Source: a virus (taxonomy: Duplodnaviria > Caudoviricetes). Taken from it: 64,000 nucleotides of DNA. Below, one piece after another: positions 7,922 through 62,193 of this stretch (position 1 is the stretch's first letter; the number at the start of each line of letters is the position of its first letter). The translations under genes were made by a program, and so were the position numbers. Location of the stretch: positions 160,001 to 224,000 of IMG/VR virus record IMGVR_UViG_3300036987_000310; one strand, 5' to 3'. The notes under the pieces were generated by a model that saw only the letters and a list, made by a program, of their open reading frames with translations, made no database searches and was not told the origin of the DNA.

Positions 7922-10355
7922 AGCTTCCTCCGTTCTTGAGAATCTGAATCCGCGCCTGAAGAGCGACTGCCTCGGCAGCTAACTCCTGTATGGCACGGGT
8001 TAGAGGTGCGATCATTGCTTCGTAGGACACGGCTTGCATGTCGTCTTTCGACACTGGTTTCGACCAGATATTACTTTCCATATCGCCCAAGGACTGTGCA
8101 ACCTCCTGGGCAATGAACCCATGGTGGATGGGGCCTTGCGGGCTGGCCTTCAGGCAGAATCTGCGTGGTCGTAGAGCCCTAATAAAGTCAAGGCCCAGGT
8201 CACAGTCCTCAATGGACGTTTTAAGCCGAATGTCCGAATCCGTGGTGTAGGCACCACCGTGGACTGTGACGGCACCCACGAGCCCAAGACGAACTCCGCT
8301 TGTGGTTGTGGTCGCACCGGATCCAACCAGGGTGGCTTCACTTGGCGGTTCAACTTCATACCAGGTCGGGCTCGACTGGTAGTTCGGTACTGGGGGTTCT
8401 GGGATGTCATAATACCACCATGTACCTTCTTTTTCGATAAAACAGAGATCACCATTATACTCGGACGACCACAGTGTACCCGTATGATCACGGTCATAGA
8501 TCGTTTTATAGGTCCACCTGGTCATACTCAAGAGTGAAAGCGCTGTGCCTGAACCGTACCCGAGACAGGTGTTGTTGTCGCCGTTTTTGTTCACGCCTCC
8601 GGTAGTACCACCCAAGTAGGTGCAGCAGAAGGCGCTTCGGATGTCGGCCCCCGCAAGGTGTCCACATATGACATTGAAGTGATCAATGTTGGGCGTATAA
8701 GTGAAGTCTTGAGAATACTCGAGCGCACGCCGTCCGATGGCGATGTTACTGCTGGAGTAGTCTGAGCCGTAAGGGGTAGACCAAGCCTCTCGCTCTTTGT
8801 CCATCCCCCAACCGACATGATATCCAAAGTAGATGTTGCGGGACGCTTTAACCGACCACTGGGCTGTTTGGCAGCCAAAGAGGATGTTATCCTCTGCTCC
8901 TGTCTCTGCTGGGGGGCGCAGCAAGCCTTTACCTACTTCAAGCCCGAAGCCGATGTTGCAAGGGCCTACACCCTGGTTTGCACCGCCAGAACCACCTTTC
9001 AAAGCCTCGAACCCAAAACCGATATTTCCGGGGAACTTATTGGGGTTGATGCCAGATTGCGAGAGAACTTGATAACCGAAGGAAACAGTGTAATTACCGA
9101 CATCGGCTGAGTTGTAGCCCCCAGCGATCACGCCGGTCAAATTCACGTCTGCATATACCGAGCCTCCCCCAAGATAGGAACGCGGATGGACTATAACGTT
9201 GTCCGACCCGGTCGTCACTTTGGAGTTGGCATATGGTCCGCAGAGGACGTTACGAGATCCGCTGGTGACGACGCTTGCTGCGAGAAGGATATTGCGGGTT
9301 CCCGTGTAAACGTTGAGGGTTGCCCCCGCACCGGCACCCAAGCACAGATTGTCCCCTGGATAAGAACCAGTTTTTGCGGCCTCGTACCCGATGGCGATGG
9401 TTCGAGTAGCGCAGCGGCCCTTACCGGAACCATATCCAGCCAGGATGACGTCCGTGCCAGGCCGTGTGGCGGTGTATATGGTCCCGACCTGGTCTCCGAT
9501 GGCAATCGGGTTCACGGCTCGGGTGTCTGAATAGCTCATCAGATTTCGCCCCACCAGGATGCCCGCAGTGAACTGGCAGGACGTGGCGGGAGACGTGCCC
9601 AGGATGATATTGCTGGAGAAGGTTCCGACGAGGTTACTTCCGGAACCAGCCCCACAGTAGGTGTTCTGAGAGCCCGAGCTTATCCGATTGCCCGAGTTGT
9701 ACCCTAAGGTAACGTTGTGGCTACCCGTCGTGAGCGCACCGTAATACTGACCCAGGCTTTCTTTGCCGAGAAACGTGTTGGTAGAGGACCCGTACGTCGG
9801 GTTGTTCCGGATCGGGAGGACTGAGTTCGCGATGTTGCCGTAGCGACCCGCAACCGCGACCCATCGGGTAGTCCCGCCAGCCCCCGTGTTGAGAATCACC
9901 TTGGCGTCTCGAACAGCGTTCGAAGCGTCTGCGGACAGGTACCGGTAAAAAGTGTCGGTCTCGGCCACGAAGCCGACGGCGTTATTTCCGGGTGCGGCGG
10001 CTTCAGCTGCTGCCACGGTTGCGTACTCGTAGACGCCCCCGCCGGGACCTCCTCCTCCCGCCGGTATCCAAGAAGAAGACCCTGCGTTCCAGGTCAAGAC
10101 CTGTCCGTCCGAAGGGGCTGTGGACGCCACAGTGCGATTTTGGATGCGGATGACGGTCTGGCTCGTCGATGTTCCTGAAAGGTCGCCTCCAGCCGTGAAT
10201 CCCCCTGGTGCCGTGACCCACACAGGCTCTGCACCGTTCCAAGACAACACATACCCTATGCTCGGGGCCGCCTGTGGTAGCCATCGATAGGCTGTGTAGG
10301 TAGGGTCCCAAAATAGGGACTGCCCTGCCGCTCGTCCTCTGCCTACAGTACTCAT
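7890..10355 (-). CDS. tail fibre protein with C-terminal intramolecular chaperone (Peptidase S74-like)
   Basis: SDIRLK...LGLDFIRALRP...HGFIAQEV plus coiled coil; N/G-rich beta-helix-type repeats; GGDLSG...IQNRTV...GQVLTW fibre repeat. Confidence 0.85.
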   Translation of the reverse strand: MSTVGRGRAAGQSLFWDPTYTAYRWLPQAAPSIGYVLSWNGAEPVWVTAPGGFTAGGDLSGTSTSQTVIRIQNRTVASTAPSDGQVLTWNAGSSSWIPAGGGGPGGGVYEYATVAAAEAAAPGNNAVGFVAETDTFYRYLSADASNAVRDAKVILNTGAGGTTRWVAVAGRYGNIANSVLPIRNNPTYGSSTNTFLGKESLGQYYGALTTGSHNVTLGYNSGNRISSGSQNTYCGAGSGSNLVGTFSSNIILGTSPATSCQFTAGILVGRNLMSYSDTRAVNPIAIGDQVGTIYTATRPGTDVILAGYGSGKGRCATRTIAIGYEAAKTGSYPGDNLCLGAGAGATLNVYTGTRNILLAASVVTSGSRNVLCGPYANSKVTTGSDNVIVHPRSYLGGGSVYADVNLTGVIAGGYNSADVGNYTVSFGYQVLSQSGINPNKFPGNIGFGFEALKGGSGGANQGVGPCNIGFGLEVGKGLLRPPAETGAEDNILFGCQTAQWSVKASRNIYFGYHVGWGMDKEREAWSTPYGSDYSSSNIAIGRRALEYSQDFTYTPNIDHFNVICGHLAGADIRSAFCCTYLGGTTGGVNKNGDNNTCLGYGSGTALSLLSMTRWTYKTIYDRDHTGTLWSSEYNGDLCFIEKEGTWWYYDIPEPPVPNYQSSPTWYEVEPPSEATLVGSGATTTTSGVRLGLVGAVTVHGGAYTTDSDIRLKTSIEDCDLGLDFIRALRPRRFCLKASPQGPIHHGFIAQEVAQSLGDMESNIWSKPVSKDDMQAVSYEAMIAPLTRAIQELAAEAVALQARIQILKNGGSCGPKTLQADA

Positions 10356-10825
10356 TCAACCACCCATCGAAAAAAGCTAGACGACCAGACAAGCGTGAGG
10401 CTGCCGTAATCGGTCATGACGGTCTCGATAAGCGAGTAACTGCTGTTGTAAATGCGTATTCGGTAGTTCACACCGAGACCAGCATTGCCTCCCCCATCGG
10501 CTATTGTGATCCGCATGCCCTCGGTTCCCGAGGGCATGTAGGCGTACCGCAAGCCGCCGTACATCATGAGCACGATGCTGGCACCAGCGCTGGGGACGAA
10601 GTAAGACGAGTTGTAGGTGTAGATGACGGGAAAAGCACCCCCTCCTTCCCCTGGTGCCCACTGCCCTCCAGCGTACTTGAGGACTTGTCCGGTCGTGGGC
10701 AAGGTGCTCGCAACAGGAACTCCTTGAATCGAGTCGATGGGGTTGCATTGAAGCGCGGTCGGGCCTGTGATCCCCGTGACTACGCCAGTTTGTGTGATTC
10801 TGAAAATACCGGCCATGTCAATCAA
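10352..10825 (-). CDS. short fibre-associated protein
   Basis: IQGVPVASTLPTTGQVLKY fibre repeat; C-terminal ITIADGGGNA...YGSLTLV beta-sandwich seen in phage fibre tips. Confidence 0.7.
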   Translation of the reverse strand: MIDMAGIFRITQTGVVTGITGPTALQCNPIDSIQGVPVASTLPTTGQVLKYAGGQWAPGEGGGAFPVIYTYNSSYFVPSAGASIVLMMYGGLRYAYMPSGTEGMRITIADGGGNAGLGVNYRIRIYNSSYSLIETVMTDYGSLTLVWSSSFFRWVVE

Positions 10826-12437
10826 CCCCTACCCCTACTGCTTGTCCCCAAGACGCCAAGATGAAATCGCCGTTGTAGGCTGCCACCTCTCCCCATTGAT
10901 CTTCGGGGAGAGCAAACGTGTCCAGCACAGACATGGTAGCAGAATCGATCAACACAGCATTCGTGTCCCACACCCCTGTCACGAGCAAACGCCCCGTTCC
11001 AAGGTCATCGAAGGCGAGGCCATCAGGGTCGCCAACGTCGTCTCCTATGTATATGGAACTCACGAATACGCAGTCCGTGTCGTACTTCCGCACAGTGTTG
11101 TTAGTGATCTCCGTGATATAAATGCTGCTGCCGTAAACAGCCACGTTCATTGCTTCGATCACATCGACAGAAGTCGCGACTTCTGTCAACGAGGTGTCGA
11201 ACTTCCGGAGCGTCGCTGAATAGGACTGCCCCCCGGCAGCCCAGACGTGACCCAACCCAAACCGGATTTTGCGTATGTAGCCGTAGTCACTGTTGTAGAT
11301 CGCGACCGAGGGAGCCACTATCTCAGGCGACGCCCCCAAGCAGGCCGCCGTGGACCACTTGAAAACACCGTAAGTGCGGTTGTTGAGCCCATCCCGACCC
11401 CAACCGATGGCGTAGAAGTTGCCAGCGCCATCGGCGCACACGCTGGTGACTTGACGCCCGGACGTAGAGAAGAGGGGCAAAGACCCCCAACCGACGACAG
11501 TGTTGGTAGCCTTTGCGATGATTGCGACGTGCCCGTTTTTCCACCCCGCACAGTAGACGTAGTCGGCGTCCTGAGCGAGATCTCGGACGCCCTGGTTGAT
11601 GTGTGGTGCCACTGAAACCGAAATACTGCTGGAGTCGATCAGACTGATGCGGAGCACGTCAGGGTAATTGGTATTGGCCTGGTCTTGTTCGGCAACCCAG
11701 ATGTAGTCTCCATCCCGAATGACAGGGCGGGGGGATGTCAAGGCCCACGCAATGCTCACCCTGACGAAGAGCCCTTCCGCTGCGGTGTCCGACAGAGGTG
11801 CCGGGATCGTGTCGATGCCGATAACTCTTTGCTGGGTCGGGCTGGCAGGGTCCCAGTCCGCGAGGTCGCCCCCGAGGGTGATGCTACCACCTCCCCCACC
11901 CGTCCCTGGTTCCCATTGGGCTTCTGCTTCATTCCAAGTTAGCGTGTTGCCATCAGCCGGCGTTGTTGCCGCGACGGCTAGATTTTGAATTTTGACTACT
12001 GTGTTGGATCCAGGGTCGCCTGTCACGTCCCCATCAAGTTCCGCAACTGTTCCTTCCGGGCCCTGTGGGCCCACTGGCCCTGTTGACCCAGGAGATCCAG
12101 GAGATCCAGGAGGCCCTGATGGCCCTGTTGATCCAGGAGGCCCTGGGGGCCCGACGACGTCTCTAAGCTTTGTGGAAGCTTTCCCGAATTTCATCAGGAA
12201 GGTATACCCGTATAAGCCTGCTCCGTCAGCTATTTGGATTAAAAAACATTCAAGTAAATAATAGTCCCTGGTCAAACCAAGAATTTCATAAATTTTGTTT
12301 ATTGATGGGTATGTTGTAACTTCAACGAGCGGGTTTGGAACCACGCCATCAGAGTTAAGCAAGACGGATGCCCTGATCGTTCCCGGCTGATCAGTCAATA
12401 GCTTTGTTGCGCCTATGGTCGTGGTCATGTTATCCAT
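10818..12437 (-). CDS. collagen-repeat fibre protein with probable beta-propeller C-terminus
   Basis: DQPGT N-domain, GPPGPPG repeats, DGDVTG...IQNLAV fibre repeat, YVTN/NHL-like blades; start uncertain (12428-12536). Confidence 0.75.
   Translation of the reverse strand: MDNMTTTIGATKLLTDQPGTIRASVLLNSDGVVPNPLVEVTTYPSINKIYEILGLTRDYYLLECFLIQIADGAGLYGYTFLMKFGKASTKLRDVVGPPGPPGSTGPSGPPGSPGSPGSTGPVGPQGPEGTVAELDGDVTGDPGSNTVVKIQNLAVAATTPADGNTLTWNEAEAQWEPGTGGGGGSITLGGDLADWDPASPTQQRVIGIDTIPAPLSDTAAEGLFVRVSIAWALTSPRPVIRDGDYIWVAEQDQANTNYPDVLRISLIDSSSISVSVAPHINQGVRDLAQDADYVYCAGWKNGHVAIIAKATNTVVGWGSLPLFSTSGRQVTSVCADGAGNFYAIGWGRDGLNNRTYGVFKWSTAACLGASPEIVAPSVAIYNSDYGYIRKIRFGLGHVWAAGGQSYSATLRKFDTSLTEVATSVDVIEAMNVAVYGSSIYITEITNNTVRKYDTDCVFVSSIYIGDDVGDPDGLAFDDLGTGRLLVTGVWDTNAVLIDSATMSVLDTFALPEDQWGEVAAYNGDFILASWGQAVGVGVD
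12057..12150 (-). repeat. collagen Gly-X-Y coding repeats
   Basis: GPPGPPGSTGPSGPPGSPGSPGSTGPVGPQG. Confidence 0.8.
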
Positions 12438-25548: not shown

Positions 25549-25752
25549 TCACCACTCAATTTCCACGCCGTGCTTCTCGGCTTCTCGGCGAATGTGTTCT
25601 TCCAAAGCTTGCGCCGCAGACACATACTCGTCGTAAGCTTTGCGAAACTCAAGGTCGGAGATCTCCTCGAAAGAGGAATACTGCCTAAAGCAATAATCAA
25701 ACCCATCGTTGTCGATTTTGAACAGCACATTTTCGACTTGATCTTTTGTCAT
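25549..25752 (-). CDS. hypothetical acidic protein
   Basis: MTKDQVENVLFKI..., ATGA overlap with upstream stop. Confidence 0.65.
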   Translation of the reverse strand: MTKDQVENVLFKIDNDGFDYCFRQYSSFEEISDLEFRKAYDEYVSAAQALEEHIRREAEKHGVEIEW

Positions 25753-26795
25753 ATCAAATTCCCATCCTTGTCTATGCAGGCCACGAATCCGTGCCCCTCG
25801 ATGTTGAACCTTGTCGGATAAGTTTTGCGGAAAGAGTCTCGAAAAGTTCCGGCCGGAGCATATGGAAACGATTCGACTCCCCCCAAAAACTCGTGCATGT
25901 GAACGACGCCTGCCGCTTCCGGGTGATTTTCGAGCACATACCACAGCAGTGGAGCATTCATTGTGGCTTTGTCCCCGTACGTCACGACAAAGTCGTCCAC
26001 AACACGGACGACCGGGCATACATTCGACAAAAGTCTCGGGCCCTTGATTCTTGGAGTAGTCAGCATAAGACCATTCTTGCACCTCACCGCAAGAGACCCA
26101 AAATGCTTGCTTCCCGCGGCCCACCGCCGTTCAAACATCCAAGCATACCTGGCCAGGAGTTTGCTCATGAAGTCGTGCGCATTTTGATCCTGTTCAACAA
26201 GGCCCTCCTTAACCGTGTGGAAATGAACGTCTTCCACCATAGCCCGAAGCTCAGCGTACAACCTGTCAAACTGGTCTTCAAACCGAAGCACAGCGCCGTC
26301 AGGGAAGCACAACATCTTTAGACGAAGATTGCTTTTGTCGTTAGCTATGACTGCATGGGCCCTAGACCTGTCTATCAGTTCCTGAGCCTTGACTATTGTT
26401 GAAGCCTCTTCTTCTCTCGAAGTGAGCTTGCATCCGATGAGCTTGCATTTCGGGTTGGCTTTCCGAATCTCGTCTATGATGTATGGGGTTCGAACAAGCT
26501 TCACGGACACTTCGTCCATGCATGTTGGCATTTTTCCTTCGAACGGCTTTTCCGGAACGTAGTTTGTGACTGCTGCAGCCATCACAGCAGCGTCCGAAAT
26601 TTTTGCCAAATTTATGCACGATTCTAGGTATGCCCGCCATTCCATGTTGTGAATGGACGTCACCTCATGTCCGTGACTGCGCAAGTAGTCTACAAATTGG
26701 AGAGCCCATTTTCCGCGCGCCAAATTGGAAAAAATTTTGTTGTCGTCAAGTTTTCCAAAAACGGGACCGGACGTCACTAGCACTTTTTTCGACAT
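25749..26795 (-). CDS. CoaB/DFP-like domain fused to class II aldolase/adducin-like domain
   Basis: VLVTSGP...SNLARG...AAAVTNY...GCKL...VIAND (CoaB-like); FGSLAVR...VVHMH (class II aldolase HxH). Confidence 0.7.
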   Translation of the reverse strand: MSKKVLVTSGPVFGKLDDNKIFSNLARGKWALQFVDYLRSHGHEVTSIHNMEWRAYLESCINLAKISDAAVMAAAVTNYVPEKPFEGKMPTCMDEVSVKLVRTPYIIDEIRKANPKCKLIGCKLTSREEEASTIVKAQELIDRSRAHAVIANDKSNLRLKMLCFPDGAVLRFEDQFDRLYAELRAMVEDVHFHTVKEGLVEQDQNAHDFMSKLLARYAWMFERRWAAGSKHFGSLAVRCKNGLMLTTPRIKGPRLLSNVCPVVRVVDDFVVTYGDKATMNAPLLWYVLENHPEAAGVVHMHEFLGGVESFPYAPAGTFRDSFRKTYPTRFNIEGHGFVACIDKDGNLI

Positions 26796-28841: not shown

Positions 28842-29066
28842 TCAGGACATTTTTATCAAGCTGAGCTTGGCGGCTCTTTTCACAGCCTCAATCAAATCAA
28901 GGTCGTCTGATTCTGACAAAAGCCCGGCTTTCACGTCTCTGTCATCATGATCAAATCTGGCCAAAACCATTGGAACTTCCTTTAGACACACATATAGGTC
29001 GAACAGACCGCGCTGGCCAAGGTATACGCAGTGTGTGCACGAATTCATGTATCGAGGTCTTCCCAC
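28842..29066 (-). CDS. hypothetical protein
   Basis: CTHCVYLG...DLYVC pattern. Confidence 0.55.
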   Translation of the reverse strand: MGRPRYMNSCTHCVYLGQRGLFDLYVCLKEVPMVLARFDHDDRDVKAGLLSESDDLDLIEAVKRAAKLSLIKMS

Positions 29067-29084
29067 GATATTTCAGGCCAATCA

Positions 29085-30170
29085 ATGGCTCATCGTGTAC
29101 AGTTTGTGATGGCAAAACCAGGTCTTTCAGAGCATTTGTCCTTTGACGACGTTCTCCTGACTCCTCAATATAGCGAAGTGGTCCCGGCAGACGTGGACGT
29201 CAGCACTTCGTTAGCCGGAATAAAGTTAAAAATTCCGATTTTGAGCGCCGCCATGGACACGGTGACTGAAAGCGCCATGATGACGGCCATGGCTGCAGCC
29301 GGCGGCATTGGGGTTTTGCACAAAAATTTGTCCCCGTCCCAACAAATGTTGGAAATCGAAAAAGTCAAAGAATCATGGGGTCACGTTCCGGTTTCTGACA
29401 GGTCTACGGCAATCGCCGTTGGCGTGAACGACTGGCGTGAACGGCTTCTGGCGTGCCGTGGACTCGTGGACCTTGTGGTGATCGATTCGGCACACGGCCA
29501 CTCGAAAAATGTGATGCGGGCTGTTTCAGACATAAGAGCTGAGTTTAAATATGTGAAAATTATGGCAGGAAATGTTGTTACCCCAGAAGCAGTAAGAGAC
29601 CTAGCAACTGCTGGTGCTGATATAATTAAATGTGGGATAGGACCGGGGAGTATTTGCACAACGCGCCTTGTGTCGGGATGCGGAATGCCCCAGTTTAGCG
29701 CGATCATGAGTTGCGCTGAAGAGGCTGACAAACTCTCGGTGTTTCTGGTGGCTGATGGCGGAATCCGATGCTCCGGGGACATAGTGAAAGCGCTAGCTGC
29801 CGGGGCAGATGCCGTCATGATTGGTTCGATGTTGGCTGGAACAACTGAGTCCCCGGGAGAAGTTGTTGACGGACAATGGAAAAATTATAGGGGCATGGGG
29901 TCTGTCGCCGCCATGGAACGCGGTTCAAAAGACAGGTATGGGCAATCCGGCGTCTCTAAGGACAAACTTGTTCCTGAAGGCGTGGAAGCGATGGTTCCAT
30001 ACAAAGGATCCATTGAAGGCATCCTGCACCAGCTAGTTGGCGGTTTAAAGTCAGGGATGGGGTATGTCGGAGCAGCCGATCTGTCTCAACTTCGGTCTCG
30101 TGCAAAATTTGTTCGAGTCACCACGTCAGGGATTCGAGAGAATGGCGTACACGACGTAAAAGTTGGGTGA
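29085..30170 (+). CDS. guaB: IMP dehydrogenase lacking the CBS subdomain
   Basis: FDDVLL, SAAMDTVTE, IDSAHGHS, catalytic GIGPGSICTTR, ADGGI, YRGMGS, PEGVE. Confidence 0.92.
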   Translation: MAHRVQFVMAKPGLSEHLSFDDVLLTPQYSEVVPADVDVSTSLAGIKLKIPILSAAMDTVTESAMMTAMAAAGGIGVLHKNLSPSQQMLEIEKVKESWGHVPVSDRSTAIAVGVNDWRERLLACRGLVDLVVIDSAHGHSKNVMRAVSDIRAEFKYVKIMAGNVVTPEAVRDLATAGADIIKCGIGPGSICTTRLVSGCGMPQFSAIMSCAEEADKLSVFLVADGGIRCSGDIVKALAAGADAVMIGSMLAGTTESPGEVVDGQWKNYRGMGSVAAMERGSKDRYGQSGVSKDKLVPEGVEAMVPYKGSIEGILHQLVGGLKSGMGYVGAADLSQLRSRAKFVRVTTSGIRENGVHDVKVG

Positions 30171-30724: not shown

Positions 30725-30783
30725 TCTTCTTGAATTTCTAGGACAAGCATTTCTTCAGAAACAGACACGCTTCCCGCAGAGCT

Positions 30784-31401
30784 TTAGCATAACCGCACGA
30801 GCCTTTCCGGCTCCGGCACCCAGTCGGGAGCAAGGTCATGGTCATCTTCGTCCTCACCCACAGGCAAGGCAAAACCTACCGGAATGGCTCGCTTCAGACG
30901 GATCTCGGTATTCCAGATCCGCCCCTGGATGCCTTGCCGAAGCATCACTTCCCGCGTCTCCATGTCGATGAGGTTGCTGCCATATATGCACACGTCGGCC
31001 CAATCCGTGGCATTAAGCCATACCCGTTTGACGATGGTGTCCCAGTCCTCGACCACGGTACCGAACGCCTTGGTGAGCACGTCCGGCGTCACAATGGAAC
31101 GAGGTTCCTTGGCTGCGGCTTGTGCTCGCCGATAGGCGTCTTCCAGGGCCTCAATGACTGTGTCCCGCAGCGGCGTGCTTGGGGCGTTCTGCTCGATGAG
31201 CCTCGCCAAGGCGAGGAAGCCCTCCTGCAAAGCCTGAAGCGCCGTAACCTGGCGGTCCTCAAGGGGCCTCGGCGGCCCGAACACATGGTCAATCCTGCTC
31301 ATGGTTCTTTCCTCGTGCCATTGGCTTAGTCGGATTTGATTTGCTTCAAGATACGCTCGACGGTGGGGCGCGTTGACTGTTTCTATATCGAGAACGGTCA
31401 C
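30784..31401 (-). CDS. probable fusion: Acb2/Tad1-like helical hairpin + major-capsid-protein-like fragment
   Basis: F.P.P...Q...L...F..LA.LI....P....R...I..LE.A then VKRVWLNATDWAD...G..ID.E.....L..G.QG.IW...I...R.IPVG; both recognised from memory; alternative ATG at 31302. Confidence 0.55.
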   Translation of the reverse strand: MTVLDIETVNAPHRRAYLEANQIRLSQWHEERTMSRIDHVFGPPRPLEDRQVTALQALQEGFLALARLIEQNAPSTPLRDTVIEALEDAYRRAQAAAKEPRSIVTPDVLTKAFGTVVEDWDTIVKRVWLNATDWADVCIYGSNLIDMETREVMLRQGIQGRIWNTEIRLKRAIPVGFALPVGEDEDDHDLAPDWVPEPERLVRLC

Positions 31402-34782: not shown

Positions 34783-35526
34783 CTAAGTACGAGTCTTGCT
34801 GCGGGTTTTCATCGTTTCGCGAAGCCTGCTTATGGCTTGGAACTCCACTTGACGAATGCGCTCTCGAGACAGTCCAAACTCTTTCCCAATTTCGTCAAGC
34901 GTGTCTTCATCCCAGAATCTCAGCTTCAAAACTATCTGATCAAAATCAGGAAGCTCAAAAAAAGCTTTTTCCAGCTCTTCCACCTCCAACCCGAGAAGCG
35001 GGTCCTCCGGATTCGGGTCTTCCAGCACCTGAACGAAATCTTCAGAATCTGGGTCATGGTTTTTCTTGACCGGAGAGTCCAGGCTTTTCACGCAGAAAGC
35101 GCACTCTCGCAAATGGACGTCAAGCCGATCCATCCCCAGCTTTTCAGCAATGTTGGCTTGTGTCCATCCTTTATCACGAAGTCTCAAAACCTTTTGAAAC
35201 CTGTGGCTGGTTCTTCCGACTCCGCCGAAAGCTCTTTGCCAAACGCCTTCCCTGATGGAATTTCCCCACATGTGTCTCCAAACATGCCCAGAAAACGATC
35301 CCTTCTCCGGGTCCCAACTTCGAACTGCCGACATAACAGATATCATCGACACTTGTTCAATATCTTCTGGGGCGGCAACCTTGTGCCACTTGCGGGCAAA
35401 CATTCTAGCCATCGGGCGGAACTTTTCTACACATTTTTCCATGGCGTCGCGATCGCCGTTTTTGGCACGCAGAGCCATGTCTAAAACAGCTTCCGAATCT
35501 GACTGGTTATGAGTCAAGTTTGCCAA
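34783..35526 (-). CDS. sigma-70-family RNA polymerase sigma factor (group 3-like)
   Basis: Region 2 (EDIEQVSMISV...WDPEKGSFS..VW) and region 4 HTH (TLDEIGKEFGLSRERIRQVE). Confidence 0.9.
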   Translation of the reverse strand: MANLTHNQSDSEAVLDMALRAKNGDRDAMEKCVEKFRPMARMFARKWHKVAAPEDIEQVSMISVMSAVRSWDPEKGSFSGHVWRHMWGNSIREGVWQRAFGGVGRTSHRFQKVLRLRDKGWTQANIAEKLGMDRLDVHLRECAFCVKSLDSPVKKNHDPDSEDFVQVLEDPNPEDPLLGLEVEELEKAFFELPDFDQIVLKLRFWDEDTLDEIGKEFGLSRERIRQVEFQAISRLRETMKTRSKTRT

Positions 35527-38218: not shown

Positions 38219-38419
38219 TCAGTCCTCCATGACGGACCTGACGCAGCACAGACTGCAATCTTGAAACACGCTTGAATCTGTAAACGCGGACACCATCCGT
38301 CCACACTCCGGACATGGGTTTCCAACCATGTCTGCATAGTCCCTCTCGTTCATGAAATATTTCGAACGTTTCAACGGGACTTTGTCAATCAACGCGAAAA
38401 TTTCCGCCAATGTTTTCAT
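38219..38419 (-). CDS. zinc-ribbon protein, tag family
   Basis: CPEC...CSLC-CVRSVMED*. Confidence 0.65.
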   Translation of the reverse strand: MKTLAEIFALIDKVPLKRSKYFMNERDYADMVGNPCPECGRMVSAFTDSSVFQDCSLCCVRSVMED

Positions 38420-38715
38420 GATCGCATGACTTCTTCGACGCAGGAGCATCGTTCAGGAAATTGATTGTCGCAGACGATACAAAAAAACCGAGATTCAAAT
38501 CGGGACTTGTGATCGTAGGCGCGAATCTCGACGACGCCGCCACGCTTGACCGCAGAGACCATGCGAACGGCTTTTCCATGCTTTTCAATTTCTGCCATGA
38601 CGTCGCAAACGTTGGCGGAAAAGTGTTTGCCAGCTTCACGCGGAGCGTGAAAATTGCTGTATAAGGTGCATCCGAGAAAGGCGAAAAACATGCCGAGGGG
38701 AAGACTTTCGGTCAC
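38416..38715 (-). CDS. zinc-ribbon protein, tag family
   Basis: CIVC...CSCVEEVMRS*. Confidence 0.6.
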   Translation of the reverse strand: MTESLPLGMFFAFLGCTLYSNFHAPREAGKHFSANVCDVMAEIEKHGKAVRMVSAVKRGGVVEIRAYDHKSRFESRFFCIVCDNQFPERCSCVEEVMRS

Positions 38716-48419: not shown

Positions 48420-48881
48420 TCACGCCGACATGACTTTTTGAACTAAGAGATTTTCCTTCGCTTGCTCAGTTTGCTCCTTTGTTGCAAACTTATGGACAAT
48501 TTTCTTTAAATTGAACTTTTTCGTTCTGAGAACCGTCAGATCTGCTCCGTGTTCTAGGAGCAGTTTGCACACTTCAAAGTGCCCTGCTCGTGCAACACAC
48601 CGGAGCGCCCAATCATCATCTGCATGAACGTTCGCTCCGTGTTCTAGAAGCAGTTTGCACACTTCCAAGTGCTTACCCTTTGCAGCATATTGAAGTGCCC
48701 AGTCATCATTTGCATGAACGTTCGCCCCGTTTTCTAGAAACAATCTGCACACTTCTAAGTGCCCCCATGCTGCAGCATACTGGAGCGCCAAATCGTTTTT
48801 CGCGTGAACATCTGCTCCGTGTTCCAAGAGCAGTTTGCACGTCTCTAGATACCCAAGTTTTGCAGCTTTGGTCAGATCCAT
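48420..48881 (-). CDS. ankyrin-repeat protein (30-aa repeats, about 4) with constant tag-bearing tail
   Basis: GADVHAxxDxAL..AA..GHLEVCKLLLE; ends EQAKENLLVQKVMSA*. Confidence 0.9.
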   Translation of the reverse strand: MDLTKAAKLGYLETCKLLLEHGADVHAKNDLALQYAAAWGHLEVCRLFLENGANVHANDDWALQYAAKGKHLEVCKLLLEHGANVHADDDWALRCVARAGHFEVCKLLLEHGADLTVLRTKKFNLKKIVHKFATKEQTEQAKENLLVQKVMSA

Positions 48882-48890
48882 CCAGTCACC

Positions 48891-49262
48891 TCATGCGCTC
48901 ATGACTTTTTGAATGGAAAGAGTTTTTCTTGCTTGCTCAATTTGTTCTTTCGTTGCAAATTCTTTGACAGTTTTCATTAAATTGAACTTTTTCGTTCTGA
49001 AAACTGTCAAATCTGCTCCGTATTCTAGGAGCAGTTTGCACACTTCCGTGTGTCTTTCTGACGTAGCACACCGGAGCGCATAATTGTTGTCTGCATGAAC
49101 GTTCGCTCCATTTTCCAAGAGCAATTTGCACACTTCCAAGTGCCCATTCCGTGCAGCATGCTGAAGCGCCCAGTCTTTATTTGCGTGAACGTTTGCCCCG
49201 TTTTCTAGGAGCAATTTGCACACTTCCAAGTGCCTATGTGCTGCAGCTTTGATCAGATCCAT
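48891..49262 (-). CDS. ankyrin-repeat protein (about 3 repeats) with constant tail
   Basis: Same repeat; ends IQKVMSA*. Confidence 0.9.
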   Translation of the reverse strand: MDLIKAAAHRHLEVCKLLLENGANVHANKDWALQHAARNGHLEVCKLLLENGANVHADNNYALRCATSERHTEVCKLLLEYGADLTVFRTKKFNLMKTVKEFATKEQIEQARKTLSIQKVMSA

Positions 49263-49271
49263 CCAGTCACC

Positions 49272-49913
49272 TCAAGTGTTCATGACTTTTTGAACGGAAA
49301 GTTCACTTTTTGCTTGCTCAGTTTGCTCTTTCGTTGCAAATTTATTAACGACCTTTTTCAAATTGAACTTTTTCGTTCTGAAAATTGTCAGATTTGCTCC
49401 GTTTTCCAAAAGCAGTTTGCACACTTCAAAGTGTCCGTTTGACGCAGCGTATCGGAGCACATAATCGTTATCTACATGAATGTCTGCTCCGTTTTCCAGA
49501 AGCAGTTTGCACACTTCCAGATGCCCATTCCGTGCAGCATACTGGAGTGCATAATTGTTATCTACATGAATGTCTGCTCCATGTTCTAGGAGCAATTTGC
49601 ACACTTCTGGGTGCCCGTTTGACGCAGCGCGTCGGAGCGACCAGTCATTACCTACATGAACGTTCGCCCCATGTTCTAGGAACAATTTGCACACTTCCAA
49701 GTGCCCATTTAACGCAGCAATTTGAAGCGCCCAGTCATCATCTGCATGAATGTCTGCTCCGTGTTCCAAGAGCAATTTGCACACTTCCAGATGCCCATTC
49801 CGTGCAGCTTGTTGGAGCGCCCAGTCACTGTGTGCGTGAATGTCTGCTCCGTTCTCTAGGAACAGTTTGCACACTTCCAAGTGCCCATTCTGTGCGGCTT
49901 CGATCAGACCCAT
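49272..49913 (-). CDS. ankyrin-repeat protein (about 6 repeats) with constant tail
   Basis: Same repeat; ends VQKVMNT*. Confidence 0.9.
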   Translation of the reverse strand: MGLIEAAQNGHLEVCKLFLENGADIHAHSDWALQQAARNGHLEVCKLLLEHGADIHADDDWALQIAALNGHLEVCKLFLEHGANVHVGNDWSLRRAASNGHPEVCKLLLEHGADIHVDNNYALQYAARNGHLEVCKLLLENGADIHVDNDYVLRYAASNGHFEVCKLLLENGANLTIFRTKKFNLKKVVNKFATKEQTEQAKSELSVQKVMNT

Positions 49914-49915
49914 CC

Positions 49916-49947
49916 AGTCACCTCCGCGATCGAATACTCGCGATCGG
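49916..49947 (-). promoter_or_regulatory. GTA-core promoter-like motif + GGAGGTGAC RBS
   Basis: CGATCGCGAGTATTCGATCGCGGAGGTGAC. Confidence 0.65.
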
Positions 49948-49983
49948 CGCTGGCTTGCGTTTTATTGTGAACGGAATGATGAA

Positions 49984-50346
49984 CTACGCGCGGTTGCCGA
50001 AGTTCTCGCGCGCGTCGTCGACGTGGTCGTCGTTGGTGTTGGCGCCGTTGGTGTTGGCGCCATAGTCTCGCGTCCCCGCTCCGGGCCGTTGGCGCCGTTG
50101 CCTCATGTTGTCCGCGGGCCTTGGGGCGCCTACTGACCTGGCCGGTCGCATGTGCACGTACACGGGCGAGCCTTCTGTGTCCTCGTCCGGAATCGGACAA
50201 GAGCAATGCAGTTCCATCATTCCGAGCGGGATGGTGAAGTCAAGCATTTCGACGCCGCTTTGAGCGACTCTCAGCTTTGCTTGAAGCACCACTTGATTGA
50301 CGTTGGCGTACTTGTTTGGCGGGCCGCTTTTCTCAAAATTGTTCAT
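49984..50346 (-). CDS. hypothetical protein
   Basis: GAGG RBS; disordered C-terminus with GANTN x2. Confidence 0.6.
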   Translation of the reverse strand: MNNFEKSGPPNKYANVNQVVLQAKLRVAQSGVEMLDFTIPLGMMELHCSCPIPDEDTEGSPVYVHMRPARSVGAPRPADNMRQRRQRPGAGTRDYGANTNGANTNDDHVDDARENFGNRA

Positions 50347-59539: not shown

Positions 59540-60088
59540 TCATGTGCCCATGACTTTTTGAACGGAAAGAATTTTCTTCGCTTGCTCAATCTGCTCTTTC
59601 GTTGCAAATTCCCGAGCTAACCTTTTCAAATTGAAGTTTTCCGTTCTGAGAACCGTTAGGTCTGCCCCGTGTTCTAGGAGCAATTTGCACACTTCAAAAT
59701 TCTCATATTGTGCGGCCCACCGGAGTGAACGATCATTGTGTGCGTGAACGTCTGCCCCATGTTCTAGGAGCAGTTTGCACACTTCCAGGTGCCCATTGTG
59801 CGCAGCACACTCTAACGCATAATCGTCCGCACGAATACCTGCTCCATGTTCTAGGAACAGCTTACATACTTCAAAATGCCCGTTTGATGCAGCAAACTGG
59901 AGCGCCTGATCACCGTCTGCATGAACGTTCGCCCCGTTTTCTAGAAGCAGTTTGCACACTTTAGGGTGTCCGTTTGACGCAGCCCACTGGAGCGCCAAGT
60001 CGTTCTTTGCATGGACGTCCTCCCCGTTCTCTAGAAACAGTTTGCACGCCTCAAAGTCACCAAGTTTTGCGGCTTCGATCAGACCCAT
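59540..60088 (-). CDS. ankyrin-repeat protein (about 5 repeats) with constant tail
   Basis: Start MGLIEAA; ends EQAKKILSVQKVMGT*. Confidence 0.9.
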   Translation of the reverse strand: MGLIEAAKLGDFEACKLFLENGEDVHAKNDLALQWAASNGHPKVCKLLLENGANVHADGDQALQFAASNGHFEVCKLFLEHGAGIRADDYALECAAHNGHLEVCKLLLEHGADVHAHNDRSLRWAAQYENFEVCKLLLEHGADLTVLRTENFNLKRLAREFATKEQIEQAKKILSVQKVMGT

Positions 60089-60098
60089 GGTTTGGCTT

Positions 60099-60539
60099 TC
60101 ACGCTTCTTCCCGAACAGTTTGCACGAGCTCGGAAAGCTTGTTCGCCAGGTCTCTGAGCTCTCCTTCAGGCAATTCCTGCGCAGCCTCGAACAGAGTTTG
60201 CACTCGATCCTTCGGGCGTCGCTCAATTACCTCGAGCGACAACAGCTCCCCGACTTCCGGGTTGAAGGTCCTATACCCGCCTTCGTGGAGCTTCTCCCCC
60301 GTCAGCTTGTCCCGGTTGTAAGCCATGATCGTGAGCACCTTCTGGCCTCGGCGCGTGGTCCACAGGGCTTCCAAGGTCCCCACGTAGTGGCGCCTGTTGC
60401 AGCCTTCCTCGTGAACGGCGCGCTCCGATTCGAGCATTTGCCTGTCTGTTGGCGGCTCCCCGGCCTTGTAAGACACAAAGAGCAAGGAGCCTCGGCCGCA
60501 GTCCCTGAGCTTGTTCACCATCTGGCTCGTTGTCAACAT
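60099..60539 (-). CDS. hypothetical protein
   Basis: GGAGGTGAC RBS; 146 aa. Confidence 0.7.
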   Translation of the reverse strand: MLTTSQMVNKLRDCGRGSLLFVSYKAGEPPTDRQMLESERAVHEEGCNRRHYVGTLEALWTTRRGQKVLTIMAYNRDKLTGEKLHEGGYRTFNPEVGELLSLEVIERRPKDRVQTLFEAAQELPEGELRDLANKLSELVQTVREEA

Positions 60540-60542
60540 TTC

Positions 60543-60568
60543 GTCACCTCCGCAATCGGATACGCGCG
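60543..60568 (-). promoter_or_regulatory. GTA-core promoter-like motif + RBS
   Basis: CGCGCGTATCCGATTGCGGAGGTGAC. Confidence 0.65.
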
Positions 60569-60592
60569 GCAGAGTGCAGGCTTCGCCATCCT

Positions 60593-60775
60593 TCAGTCCA
60601 GATTTACGTCTCTTACCAGGTTTAGATCGTCTGCCAATCGGTAAGCTTCGTTTCTCCGCATGTTCTCGTCAACCAGTTGTTCGTAGCTTCTCAAGCTGTG
60701 TCCGAACCCAAAAACGAGGTATGCCTTCACTCGCGAATCATACACGACCGACCATGCTCCTTGAGTTTCTTTCAT
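60593..60775 (-). CDS. hypothetical protein (variant tail VRDVNLD)
   Basis: Paralogue of C-terminal half of 54487-54861. Confidence 0.6.
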   Translation of the reverse strand: MKETQGAWSVVYDSRVKAYLVFGFGHSLRSYEQLVDENMRRNEAYRLADDLNLVRDVNLD

Positions 60776-61119
60776 TCTTGCATGAGGTTTCTGGCTTCGC
60801 CCAAGTTGTGCCACTCTCGAATCTGATATGCCAAGTCTTCTGCTGACAGCTCCTTGCCCAAGAAGACTTGTTGCTCGCAATGGGAAAAGACCGATTCCAG
60901 TCCGCGCGGGTCGATGTTGCTGTCGTCGTTGCAAACTAGAACAGTGTATTCGTCGGTCAGTCCCGGATCCGGCTCATACTCGATGCATTGGGTGACATAC
61001 CACCATTTCCCCCAGAACCATCCAATGAACGCCATGGAGTTGATGCCGGCGTCGTCGCAATCGGTTTCTTCCATGGAGCCCATGGCTCTTTCGCAAGCAT
61101 CGAGAACAACGTCTTTCAT
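60772..61119 (-). CDS. hypothetical acidic protein (tail LMQE)
   Basis: GGAGGTGAC RBS. Confidence 0.65.
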   Translation of the reverse strand: MKDVVLDACERAMGSMEETDCDDAGINSMAFIGWFWGKWWYVTQCIEYEPDPGLTDEYTVLVCNDDSNIDPRGLESVFSHCEQQVFLGKELSAEDLAYQIREWHNLGEARNLMQE

Positions 61120-61145
61120 CCTGGTCACCTCCGATCCCACGCACA

Positions 61146-61619
61146 TTATGCGCTCATGACTTTTTGAACGGCAAGTTCACTTTTCGCTTGCTCAATTTGT
61201 TCTTCTGTCGCAAACTCTTTAACGACCTTTTTCAAATTGAACTTTTTTGTTCTCAGAACTGTTAGGTCTGCCCCGTGTTTTAGGAGCAGTTTGCACACTT
61301 CAAAGTGCCCATGTGTTGCAGCATATTGGAGCGTCCAATCGTCTTCTGCATGAACGTTTGCTCCATGTTCCAGGAGCAGTTTGCACACTTCCAGATGCCC
61401 ATAGCATGCAGCCCGCTGGAGCGCCCAGTCGTTTTCTGCATAGACGTTTGCTCCGTGTTCCAAGAGCAGTTTGCAAATTTCCAAGTGCCCACTGTATGCA
61501 GCATTTTGGAGCGCACGATCGTTCTTTGCATGGACATCCGCCCCGTTTTCCAGGAGCAGTTTGCACACTTCCAGGTGCCCATTCTGTGCGGCTTCGATCA
61601 GGTCATTGTCGTTTCCCAT
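61146..61619 (-). CDS. ankyrin-repeat protein (about 4 repeats) with constant tail
   Basis: Ends EQAKSELAVQKVMSA*. Confidence 0.9.
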   Translation of the reverse strand: MGNDNDLIEAAQNGHLEVCKLLLENGADVHAKNDRALQNAAYSGHLEICKLLLEHGANVYAENDWALQRAACYGHLEVCKLLLEHGANVHAEDDWTLQYAATHGHFEVCKLLLKHGADLTVLRTKKFNLKKVVKEFATEEQIEQAKSELAVQKVMSA

Positions 61620-61629
61620 TTTTGGTCGC

Positions 61630-62193
61630 CTAAATTTCCTGAACGTGCGCCACGGCTTCTTCAGCCATGACTGTTCGCGCCAATTTGTTCAGCTGTCGGG
61701 GAGTTGCTCCAGAGCGGCGCGCAGACCGCATGGCAGCTAAAGCTCGATTCAAGTCCCCCTGAATTTTTCGAGCTTCGCGCTTTTTCTCGGGCTCTCTGCT
61801 AACTCGCAAAGTCCTGAGCTGGGCGGCCAACTTGTTGAAGCCGCCTCCTCCGCCACGCCTCGTGAGCTCTTCCTTCATCTCTCTTTGTATGTAGTGGCGC
61901 GTGATTGAACGACTGCGCGAGAGCGACCAGTCGCGCCATTCGGGGCGCAGGCCGAACTTCTTGAAGAGGGACCAGATCAGTTGCGAGTCTGCGTCAAACT
62001 GGTCCAAATCTGGGATTCGCGCGGCAACTTTCACGGTCTTCTTGTCAAATCGCAAGCCGACGTGCACGATCGTGAAAGACTTGTTGTAGGACGGCTTGAT
62101 CAGCTTGGCGTTGGCGAGGAATGCCACGATGAGAGACGCCTTGGCGTCGTTCTCGTCGCAGAATTCTTTCGTCGTTTTCCCGAATTCGTCCAT
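61630..62193 (-). CDS. hypothetical protein, tag family
   Basis: Ends MAEEAVAHVQEI*. Confidence 0.75.
   Translation of the reverse strand: MDEFGKTTKEFCDENDAKASLIVAFLANAKLIKPSYNKSFTIVHVGLRFDKKTVKVAARIPDLDQFDADSQLIWSLFKKFGLRPEWRDWSLSRSRSITRHYIQREMKEELTRRGGGGGFNKLAAQLRTLRVSREPEKKREARKIQGDLNRALAAMRSARRSGATPRQLNKLARTVMAEEAVAHVQEI

Follow-up and report, generated by a model that had tools for sequence, protein, structure and literature searches.

A jumbo phage gene that joins a distant Acb2/Tad1-type hairpin to a capsid A-domain

Introduction

In HK97-fold capsid proteins the A-domain forms the centre of the capsomer, while the N-arm, E-loop, spine helix and P-domain are needed to link the subunits into a shell. 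Several bacterial immune systems are triggered by capsid proteins, which are hard to mutate. In the case of Avs7, Avs8 and Avs10 the site bound is the A-domain interface through which capsomers form, and monomers appear to be the target (PMC13581612); CapRel SJ46 and the staphylococcal Thoeris proteins ThsB1/B2 also bind capsid protein, and Dsr1 is a further capsid-sensing defence that binds the HK97-fold capsid protein. Two other groups of proteins are relevant here. Phage Acb2 binds cyclic dinucleotides through Tyr11 and Lys26 (PMC10312549), and Acb2 homolog 43 is a 3'cADPR sponge without Tyr11 for which the lysine is still required (10.1101/2025.08.24.671296). A-domains that stand alone have taken on unrelated functions in the Family 4 'A-domain encapsulins' and DUF1884 (PMC8346489).

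Here we describe a jumbo phage gene in which a hairpin related to the second group is joined to a capsid A-domain. Capsid protein is about 90% conserved in the clade to which this phage belongs, and the fusion bears on how a phage can avoid detection when its trigger is so fixed. In the literature that we searched, neither the fusion nor any capsid-fragment decoy is described, and no phage-encoded capsid-fragment inhibitor of Avs7/Avs8/Avs10, Dsr1, Thoeris ThsB1/B2 or CapRel SJ46 was found; within that scope the hairpin–A-domain architecture appears to be undescribed.

Results

The window, by which we mean the whole stretch of 64,000 nucleotides analysed (positions 160,001 to 224,000 of IMG/VR record IMGVR_UViG_3300036987_000310), lies inside a complete jumbo phage genome of 376,674 bases with terminal repeats. 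The stretch matches contigs of two runs, one from a groundwater and one from a coal metagenome, with no differences, and one or both of these may be the source of this DNA. The initial annotation proposed that positions 30784-31401 encode an Acb2/Tad1-like hairpin fused to a major capsid protein fragment. The reading frame is present on the minus strand and contains both of the segments quoted in support, but its start codon is likely to be ATG 31302 and not GTG 31401, since a Shine-Dalgarno-like GAGGA (31310..31314, minus strand) lies 7 nt before this ATG, an identical protein is stored in the protein collection at 172 aa, and the homologues, most of them 168–181 aa long, have their first residue aligned with it. 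We therefore describe a 172-aa fusion gene at 30784..31302 (minus strand), for which the structural model and the dN/dS values reported below are further evidence. The 33 in-frame codons that run from the GTG to the ATG (31303..31401, minus strand) are not conserved in the homologue alignment and are probably untranslated, although a 205-aa form is possible because GTG 31401 overlaps the stop codon of the upstream gene (GTGA).

Codon use in the fusion gene resembles that of the capsid gene, with a GC3 of 0.73 against a median of 0.54 and an adaptation index at the 88th percentile; a promoter scan gave hits at chance level only. Elsewhere in the window there are genes for an IMP dehydrogenase (25749-26795, minus strand; Pfam E 6e-131) and, identified by eye, a CoaB-like/aldolase fusion (29031-30170, plus strand) and a sigma-70-type factor (34783-35526, minus strand). 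Host inference based on the IMP dehydrogenase yielded no consistent host. Ankyrin-like motifs are visible by eye in a cluster of paralogous repeat proteins (48420-50065 and 59540-61740).

The assignment of the C-terminal half is clear. Residues 68-149 (30856..31101, minus strand) form the core of an HK97-fold A-domain and are a paralogue of the corresponding part (residues ~164-243) of the capsid protein that this phage encodes. When the 3402 ORFs of the genome were searched, fusion residues 71-146 aligned with residues 166-240 of a 295-aa ORF (E 1.3e-10). This ORF encodes the major capsid protein, as seen from its match to phrog_2522 (E 8e-45) and its 37% identity to phage G gp27, and its residues 166-237 are 33% identical to the fusion A-domain. 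A profile of 30 family members matches the phage G capsid (6WKK) at E 1e-26, and profile-profile alignment with hhalign covers capsid residues 164-246 at a probability of 99.8. The AlphaFold2 model of the 172-aa protein (pLDDT 95, pTM 0.82) has HK97-fold capsids and encapsulins as its best structural matches (top Z 8.7, rmsd 3.6, 91 aligned, then 8.2), in alignments that span fusion residue 68-70 to 172 and finish at the capsid C-termini. The capsid origin that had been recognized by eye in this half is therefore borne out strongly by both profile and structure searches, and by comparison with the phage's true capsid protein. PDB 2PK8 (PF08967) was also recovered as a weak Foldseek match (E 0.4), and PF08967 itself matched none of 30 fusion family members.

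Residues 150-172 (30787..30855, minus strand) comprise, by structural alignment, an acidic linker with a W-x-P motif followed by a last strand, ERLVRL, the equivalent of the capsid C-terminal strand RGLVRL. The linker stands where the capsid protein has its P-domain hairpin, and because the strand that closes the A-domain sheet is kept behind it, the A-domain of the fusion is a self-contained, foldable unit. Outside capsid residues 164-246 and the last strand there is no match; the fusion contains no P-domain, spine helix, E-loop or N-arm, and we infer that it would be unable to build an HK97 shell.

The N-terminal half is more divergent. Residues 1-67 (31102..31302, minus strand) are modelled as a short helix followed by antiparallel helices at residues 16-39 and 44-64 (pLDDT 95 for both in AlphaFold2), and the profile and structure searches identify them as a distant Acb2/Tad1-type hairpin by signals that are individually weak and all convergent. 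Residues 4-66 match phrog_1454 at E 2e-5 (among 38,880 profiles), as do 11 of 30 family members. The fusion does not reach the gathering cut-off of PF24729, and Pfam is empty for the single protein, with PF24729 matched by 4 of the 30 members (best E 0.009). A Microbacterium phage protein scores above this cut-off and also matches phrog_1454 (E 1e-17), and hhalign aligns its PF24729-positive subfamily with the fusion hairpins (probability 91, E 1e-6). In a viral structure search, named Acb2/Tad1 hairpins make up 15 of the top 18 matches, with TM values of 0.76-0.80 to Acb2/Tad1 models, although the antiparallel hairpin is a common fold and this similarity is not decisive alone. Among solved structures Acb2 homolog 43 ranks first (9PTQ; Z 7.3, rmsd 2.5, 60 aligned), level with unrelated hairpins, and the nearest ESM Atlas clusters are those of PF24729 (feature score 0.82), which we treat as a lead only. 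Profiles of the PaMx33/JBD67/T4-type Acb2 proteins gave no significant match to the fusion hairpin (probability 1.5-5), and from that comparison only the helix register was used; a hairpin-only profile found nothing meaningful among PDB sequences or short proteins. The relationship to Acb2/Tad1 suggested by the initial annotation is thus upheld by the phrog_1454, hhalign and structure matches together. We also considered that the second helix might be the spine helix of the capsid protein and rejected this, as the hhalign alignments to capsids begin at residue 69 and the similarity to Acb2 extends over the hairpin as a whole. A stand-alone Acb2 was found neither in this genome nor in 23 relatives, which is a weak negative since the PHROG search matched nothing in the relatives.

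Homologue alignments agree with the earlier observation that the YH and MW residues usual in these sponges are absent. The fusion has Pro11 and Gln26 where PaMx33 Acb2 has Tyr11 and Lys26. Canonical Acb2 sequences retain Tyr11 in 57 of 60 cases and Lys26 in 59 of 60, whereas 27 fusion hairpins never have Tyr at position 11 or Lys at position 26, the latter column being varied (Q12, R6, L4, H3). Arg67 and Thr74 of the cyclic-trinucleotide pocket, which are variable even in Acb2, correspond to Pro44 and Glu51, or to Arg46 if a two-residue gap is allowed, the register here being ambiguous by two residues. F8, P11, Q18 and R46 are conserved across the fusion family, the median net charge of its hairpins is -1, and Gln at the Lys26 position also occurs in one stand-alone PF24729 subfamily. 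Judged from these alignments the canonical cyclic-dinucleotide pocket is lost in the fusion hairpin, which would thus be an instance of the Acb2 hairpin being reused without its known pocket.

The fusion is one member of a family. Searching 1.8 billion cluster representatives yielded 75 matches, and the hairpin and the A-domain occur together in 34 divergent sequences of nearly constant length that share ~30-45% identity overall; pattern scans for further loci added a single one, from metagenomes, and nothing from viral contigs. Relative to a homologue that is 76% identical, dN/dS is 0.19 for the hairpin, 0.15 for the A-domain and 0.03 for the tail, and the fusion is under purifying selection. 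Across the 34 members polar and charged residues of the capsid protein are kept, namely E179 (91%), D182 (79%), N191 (85%), D197 (74%), R199 (82%) and K200 (76%). The family motif D-x-R-K is D-V-C-I here (residues 103-106; 30985..30996, minus strand), so that the arginine and lysine are lost in this allele only; the 76%-identical homologue keeps both, and the letters encoding C-I are identical in the contigs of both runs. The substitution could reflect either decay or a changed specificity.

A tree of A-domains (82 columns) is mostly unresolved, with 30 of the 34 fusion domains falling in one group of 52 rows (support 83/86) that mixes them with domains of other architectures. The module of A-domain plus tail is also joined to other, varied N-termini in this clade. 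Two relatives, P0031 and P0051, have two A-domain copies per chain, and in others the A-domain stands behind N-termini that open with a common short 'M-T-x-x-R-K' leader.

The capsid gene lies ~137 kb from the fusion gene. At the homologue loci the gene is found among small unannotated ORFs, with no common neighbours and no head genes nearby. Four complete relatives, whose capsid protein is ~90% identical, lack the fusion, and three of them have another match to a capsid-like fragment; across 80 related loci the capsid protein is 76-99% identical. The gene occupies an apparent swappable slot (30765..31394), in that near-identical relatives share the flanks and diverge at 30764 and 31395. The evidence is one contig per side (2184 and 227 bases), with alignment lost within 20 bases of the ORF ends, and it suggests that two close relatives carry other DNA at the slot; in one of them a different reading frame starts at the slot edge. 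On a phage-like contig of a metagenome-assembled genome (L117) there are tandem copies of the fusion, at 10001-10528 and 10841-11368 (plus strand). Because the gene is absent from four relatives, apparently swapped at its slot and under purifying selection, we infer that it is optional and exchangeable yet maintained, as is typical of host-conflict genes. In Pseudomonas phage JBD67 (L131, 22985-23311) acb2 is the second gene after the one for the major head protein. Such adjacency could provide one route to a hairpin–capsid fusion, and it is not seen in this clade.

At least four further ORFs in the genome encode capsid fragments, corresponding to the A-domain, the N-arm, the spine helix and the first half of the A-domain. 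They lie at 125965-126375 (minus strand), 133270-133512 (minus strand) and 313692-313937 (plus strand) of the complete genome (G000:C1) and at 38219-38449 (minus strand) of the window. Each combines its fragment with a Cys-rich knuckle and a shared C-terminal peptide, [VI][MH][EDN][SAVET], which ends ~47 ORFs where ~1 is expected, mostly within G000:C1 106000-261000; the hairpin–A-domain fusion does not have this peptide. The genome also contains an EF-Tu-like gene of 388 aa (G000:C1 141418-142584, minus strand), recognized by an N-terminal motif only. EF-Tu is the target of the capsid-triggered Lit protease, and it is also a component of the capsid-sensing Avs7 complex.

Discussion

What might such a protein do? 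The explanation that we rank first, tentatively and at clearly less than even odds, is that it mimics the capsid as an accessory protein outside the virion and so draws off defences that sense capsids. The hairpin would oligomerise as Acb2 does, and the oligomer would display several A-domains. These would occupy the receptors that recognize the capsomer-forming face of unassembled capsid protein, such as Avs7/8/10-type STAND proteins, ThsB-type TIR proteins or CapRel-type toxins, and if receptor activation were not completed the real capsid protein could escape detection. A decoy of this kind is plausible because Avs7, Avs8 and Avs10 bind the A-domain (PMC13581612), and a titrating decoy would be expected to take the form of a folded A-domain carried by an oligomerising hairpin. 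Consistent with it, a whole foldable A-domain has been copied, with the last strand kept behind a new linker, the capsid polar and charged residues are kept across 34 divergent members, and the gene behaves as conflict genes do, being accessory, absent from four relatives, apparently swapped in close relatives, duplicated in tandem in one contig and under purifying selection; the tested members of the hairpin superfamily are, moreover, anti-defence proteins. Several points count against it. Isolated core fragments activated other Avs sensors (PMC13581612), and a free A-domain could likewise set off defence instead of blocking it. Conservation of the polar residues may have a structural cause or reflect contacts between capsid proteins, and this allele lacks the conserved RK pair. 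Other small genes of the clade copy further parts of the capsid protein, among them the N-arm and the spine helix, and as the A-domain–tail module occurs with other N-termini too, there may be nothing special in its being joined to the hairpin.

In two alternatives the fusion would likewise bind a protein. Both domains could be repurposed scaffolds that bind some other host or phage protein and have nothing to do with capsid sensing, assembly or nucleotide signals, a possible though doubtful account for which the Family 4 'A-domain encapsulins' and DUF1884 offer a precedent (PMC8346489). The attachment of the A-domain to many different N-termini in the clade fits it, as does the defined packing of the two domains in the model (pTM 0.82), but the capsid-specific polar residues are retained at 70-90% in a family with only ~30-45% identity overall, which suggests that a capsid-like surface still matters. 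Slightly more doubtful is a modulator of capsid assembly, in which the A-domain would bind the real capsid through its capsomer-forming interface and act as a chaperone, a monomer cap or an assembly poison for co-infecting relatives; as a monomer cap it would hide monomers from sensors too. The domain retained and the residues conserved are those of the capsomer centre, and codon use is capsid-like, although the high GC3 may equally be explained by import from a higher-GC relative. The gene is nevertheless dispensable, given the four complete relatives without it, and is never found in the head module, and a poison would hit the phage's own heads because the capsid protein is ~90% identical across the clade.

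The remaining accounts turn on the hairpin or dispense with function altogether. It is unlikely that the fusion is a sponge of changed specificity, that is, a nucleotide-binding hexamer for a non-canonical signal that its A-domain directs to capsid-activated cyclases or assembly sites. Homolog 43, the closest solved hairpin (Z 7.3, tied with unrelated hairpins), manages without Tyr11, a stand-alone PF24729 subfamily has Gln at the Lys26 position, and the conservation of F8, P11, Q18 and R46 together with the hairpin dN/dS of 0.19 would fit a retained function, but Tyr11 and Lys26 are near-invariant in canonical Acb2 and absent from every one of the 27 fusion hairpins, several different residues stand at the Lys26 position where even homolog 43 needs a lysine, and the median charge of the hairpin is negative. 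A combined 'bait-and-sponge' seems to us improbable; here the capsid A-domain, as a multivalent copy of the phage's own immune trigger, would trap sensors or cyclases that capsids activate, and an Acb2-type oligomer would soak up the signal on site. Least credible by far is the account in which gene shuffling produced the fusion neutrally, as a chimera without a selected function. The other capsid-fragment ORFs in the genome and the loss of conserved residues in this allele would suit it, and this allele could be decaying, but for the family it is largely refuted by 34 divergent members of the same architecture and near-constant length, by the low dN/dS of all three parts and by an intact frame with a ribosome-binding site.

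The capsid-mimic explanation lends itself to experiment: the fusion is a small, probably well-folded and selected protein with the A-domain as its only capsid part and a partner from an anti-defence family, and the decoy idea is testable with cloned Avs7/8/10, Thoeris and CapRel systems. If it proves to be an assembly modulator instead, it would provide a natural tool for studies of jumbo-phage head assembly.

Compared with known systems, the fusion is neither a canonical Acb2 sponge nor a capsid protein, and is built from two known parts. With the Acb2 family (PaMx33, 8H2J; T4 Vs.4, 7UQ2; homolog 43, 9PTQ; PF24729; phrog_1454) it shares a short N-terminal arm, two long antiparallel helices with the same register of hydrophobic positions, and its status as a phage accessory gene, but it falls below the Pfam cut-off, has Tyr11 and Lys26 replaced, and carries a 105-residue capsid domain. 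It resembles capsid proteins of the phage G gp27 type (6WKK; phrog_2522) in the sequence and fold of the A-domain and in the C-terminal strand, and differs from them in that its gene lies outside the head module and is diverging far faster than the capsid protein. The Family 4 'A-domain encapsulins' and DUF1884 (PF08967; Pyrococcus PF0899, 2PK8) likewise present an isolated HK97 A-domain as a protein of its own; the Family 4 proteins, however, are cellular, share a two-gene operon with an enzyme and lack a hairpin, whereas the A-domain of the fusion derives from the capsid lineage of the phage itself and is found in a phage accessory context.
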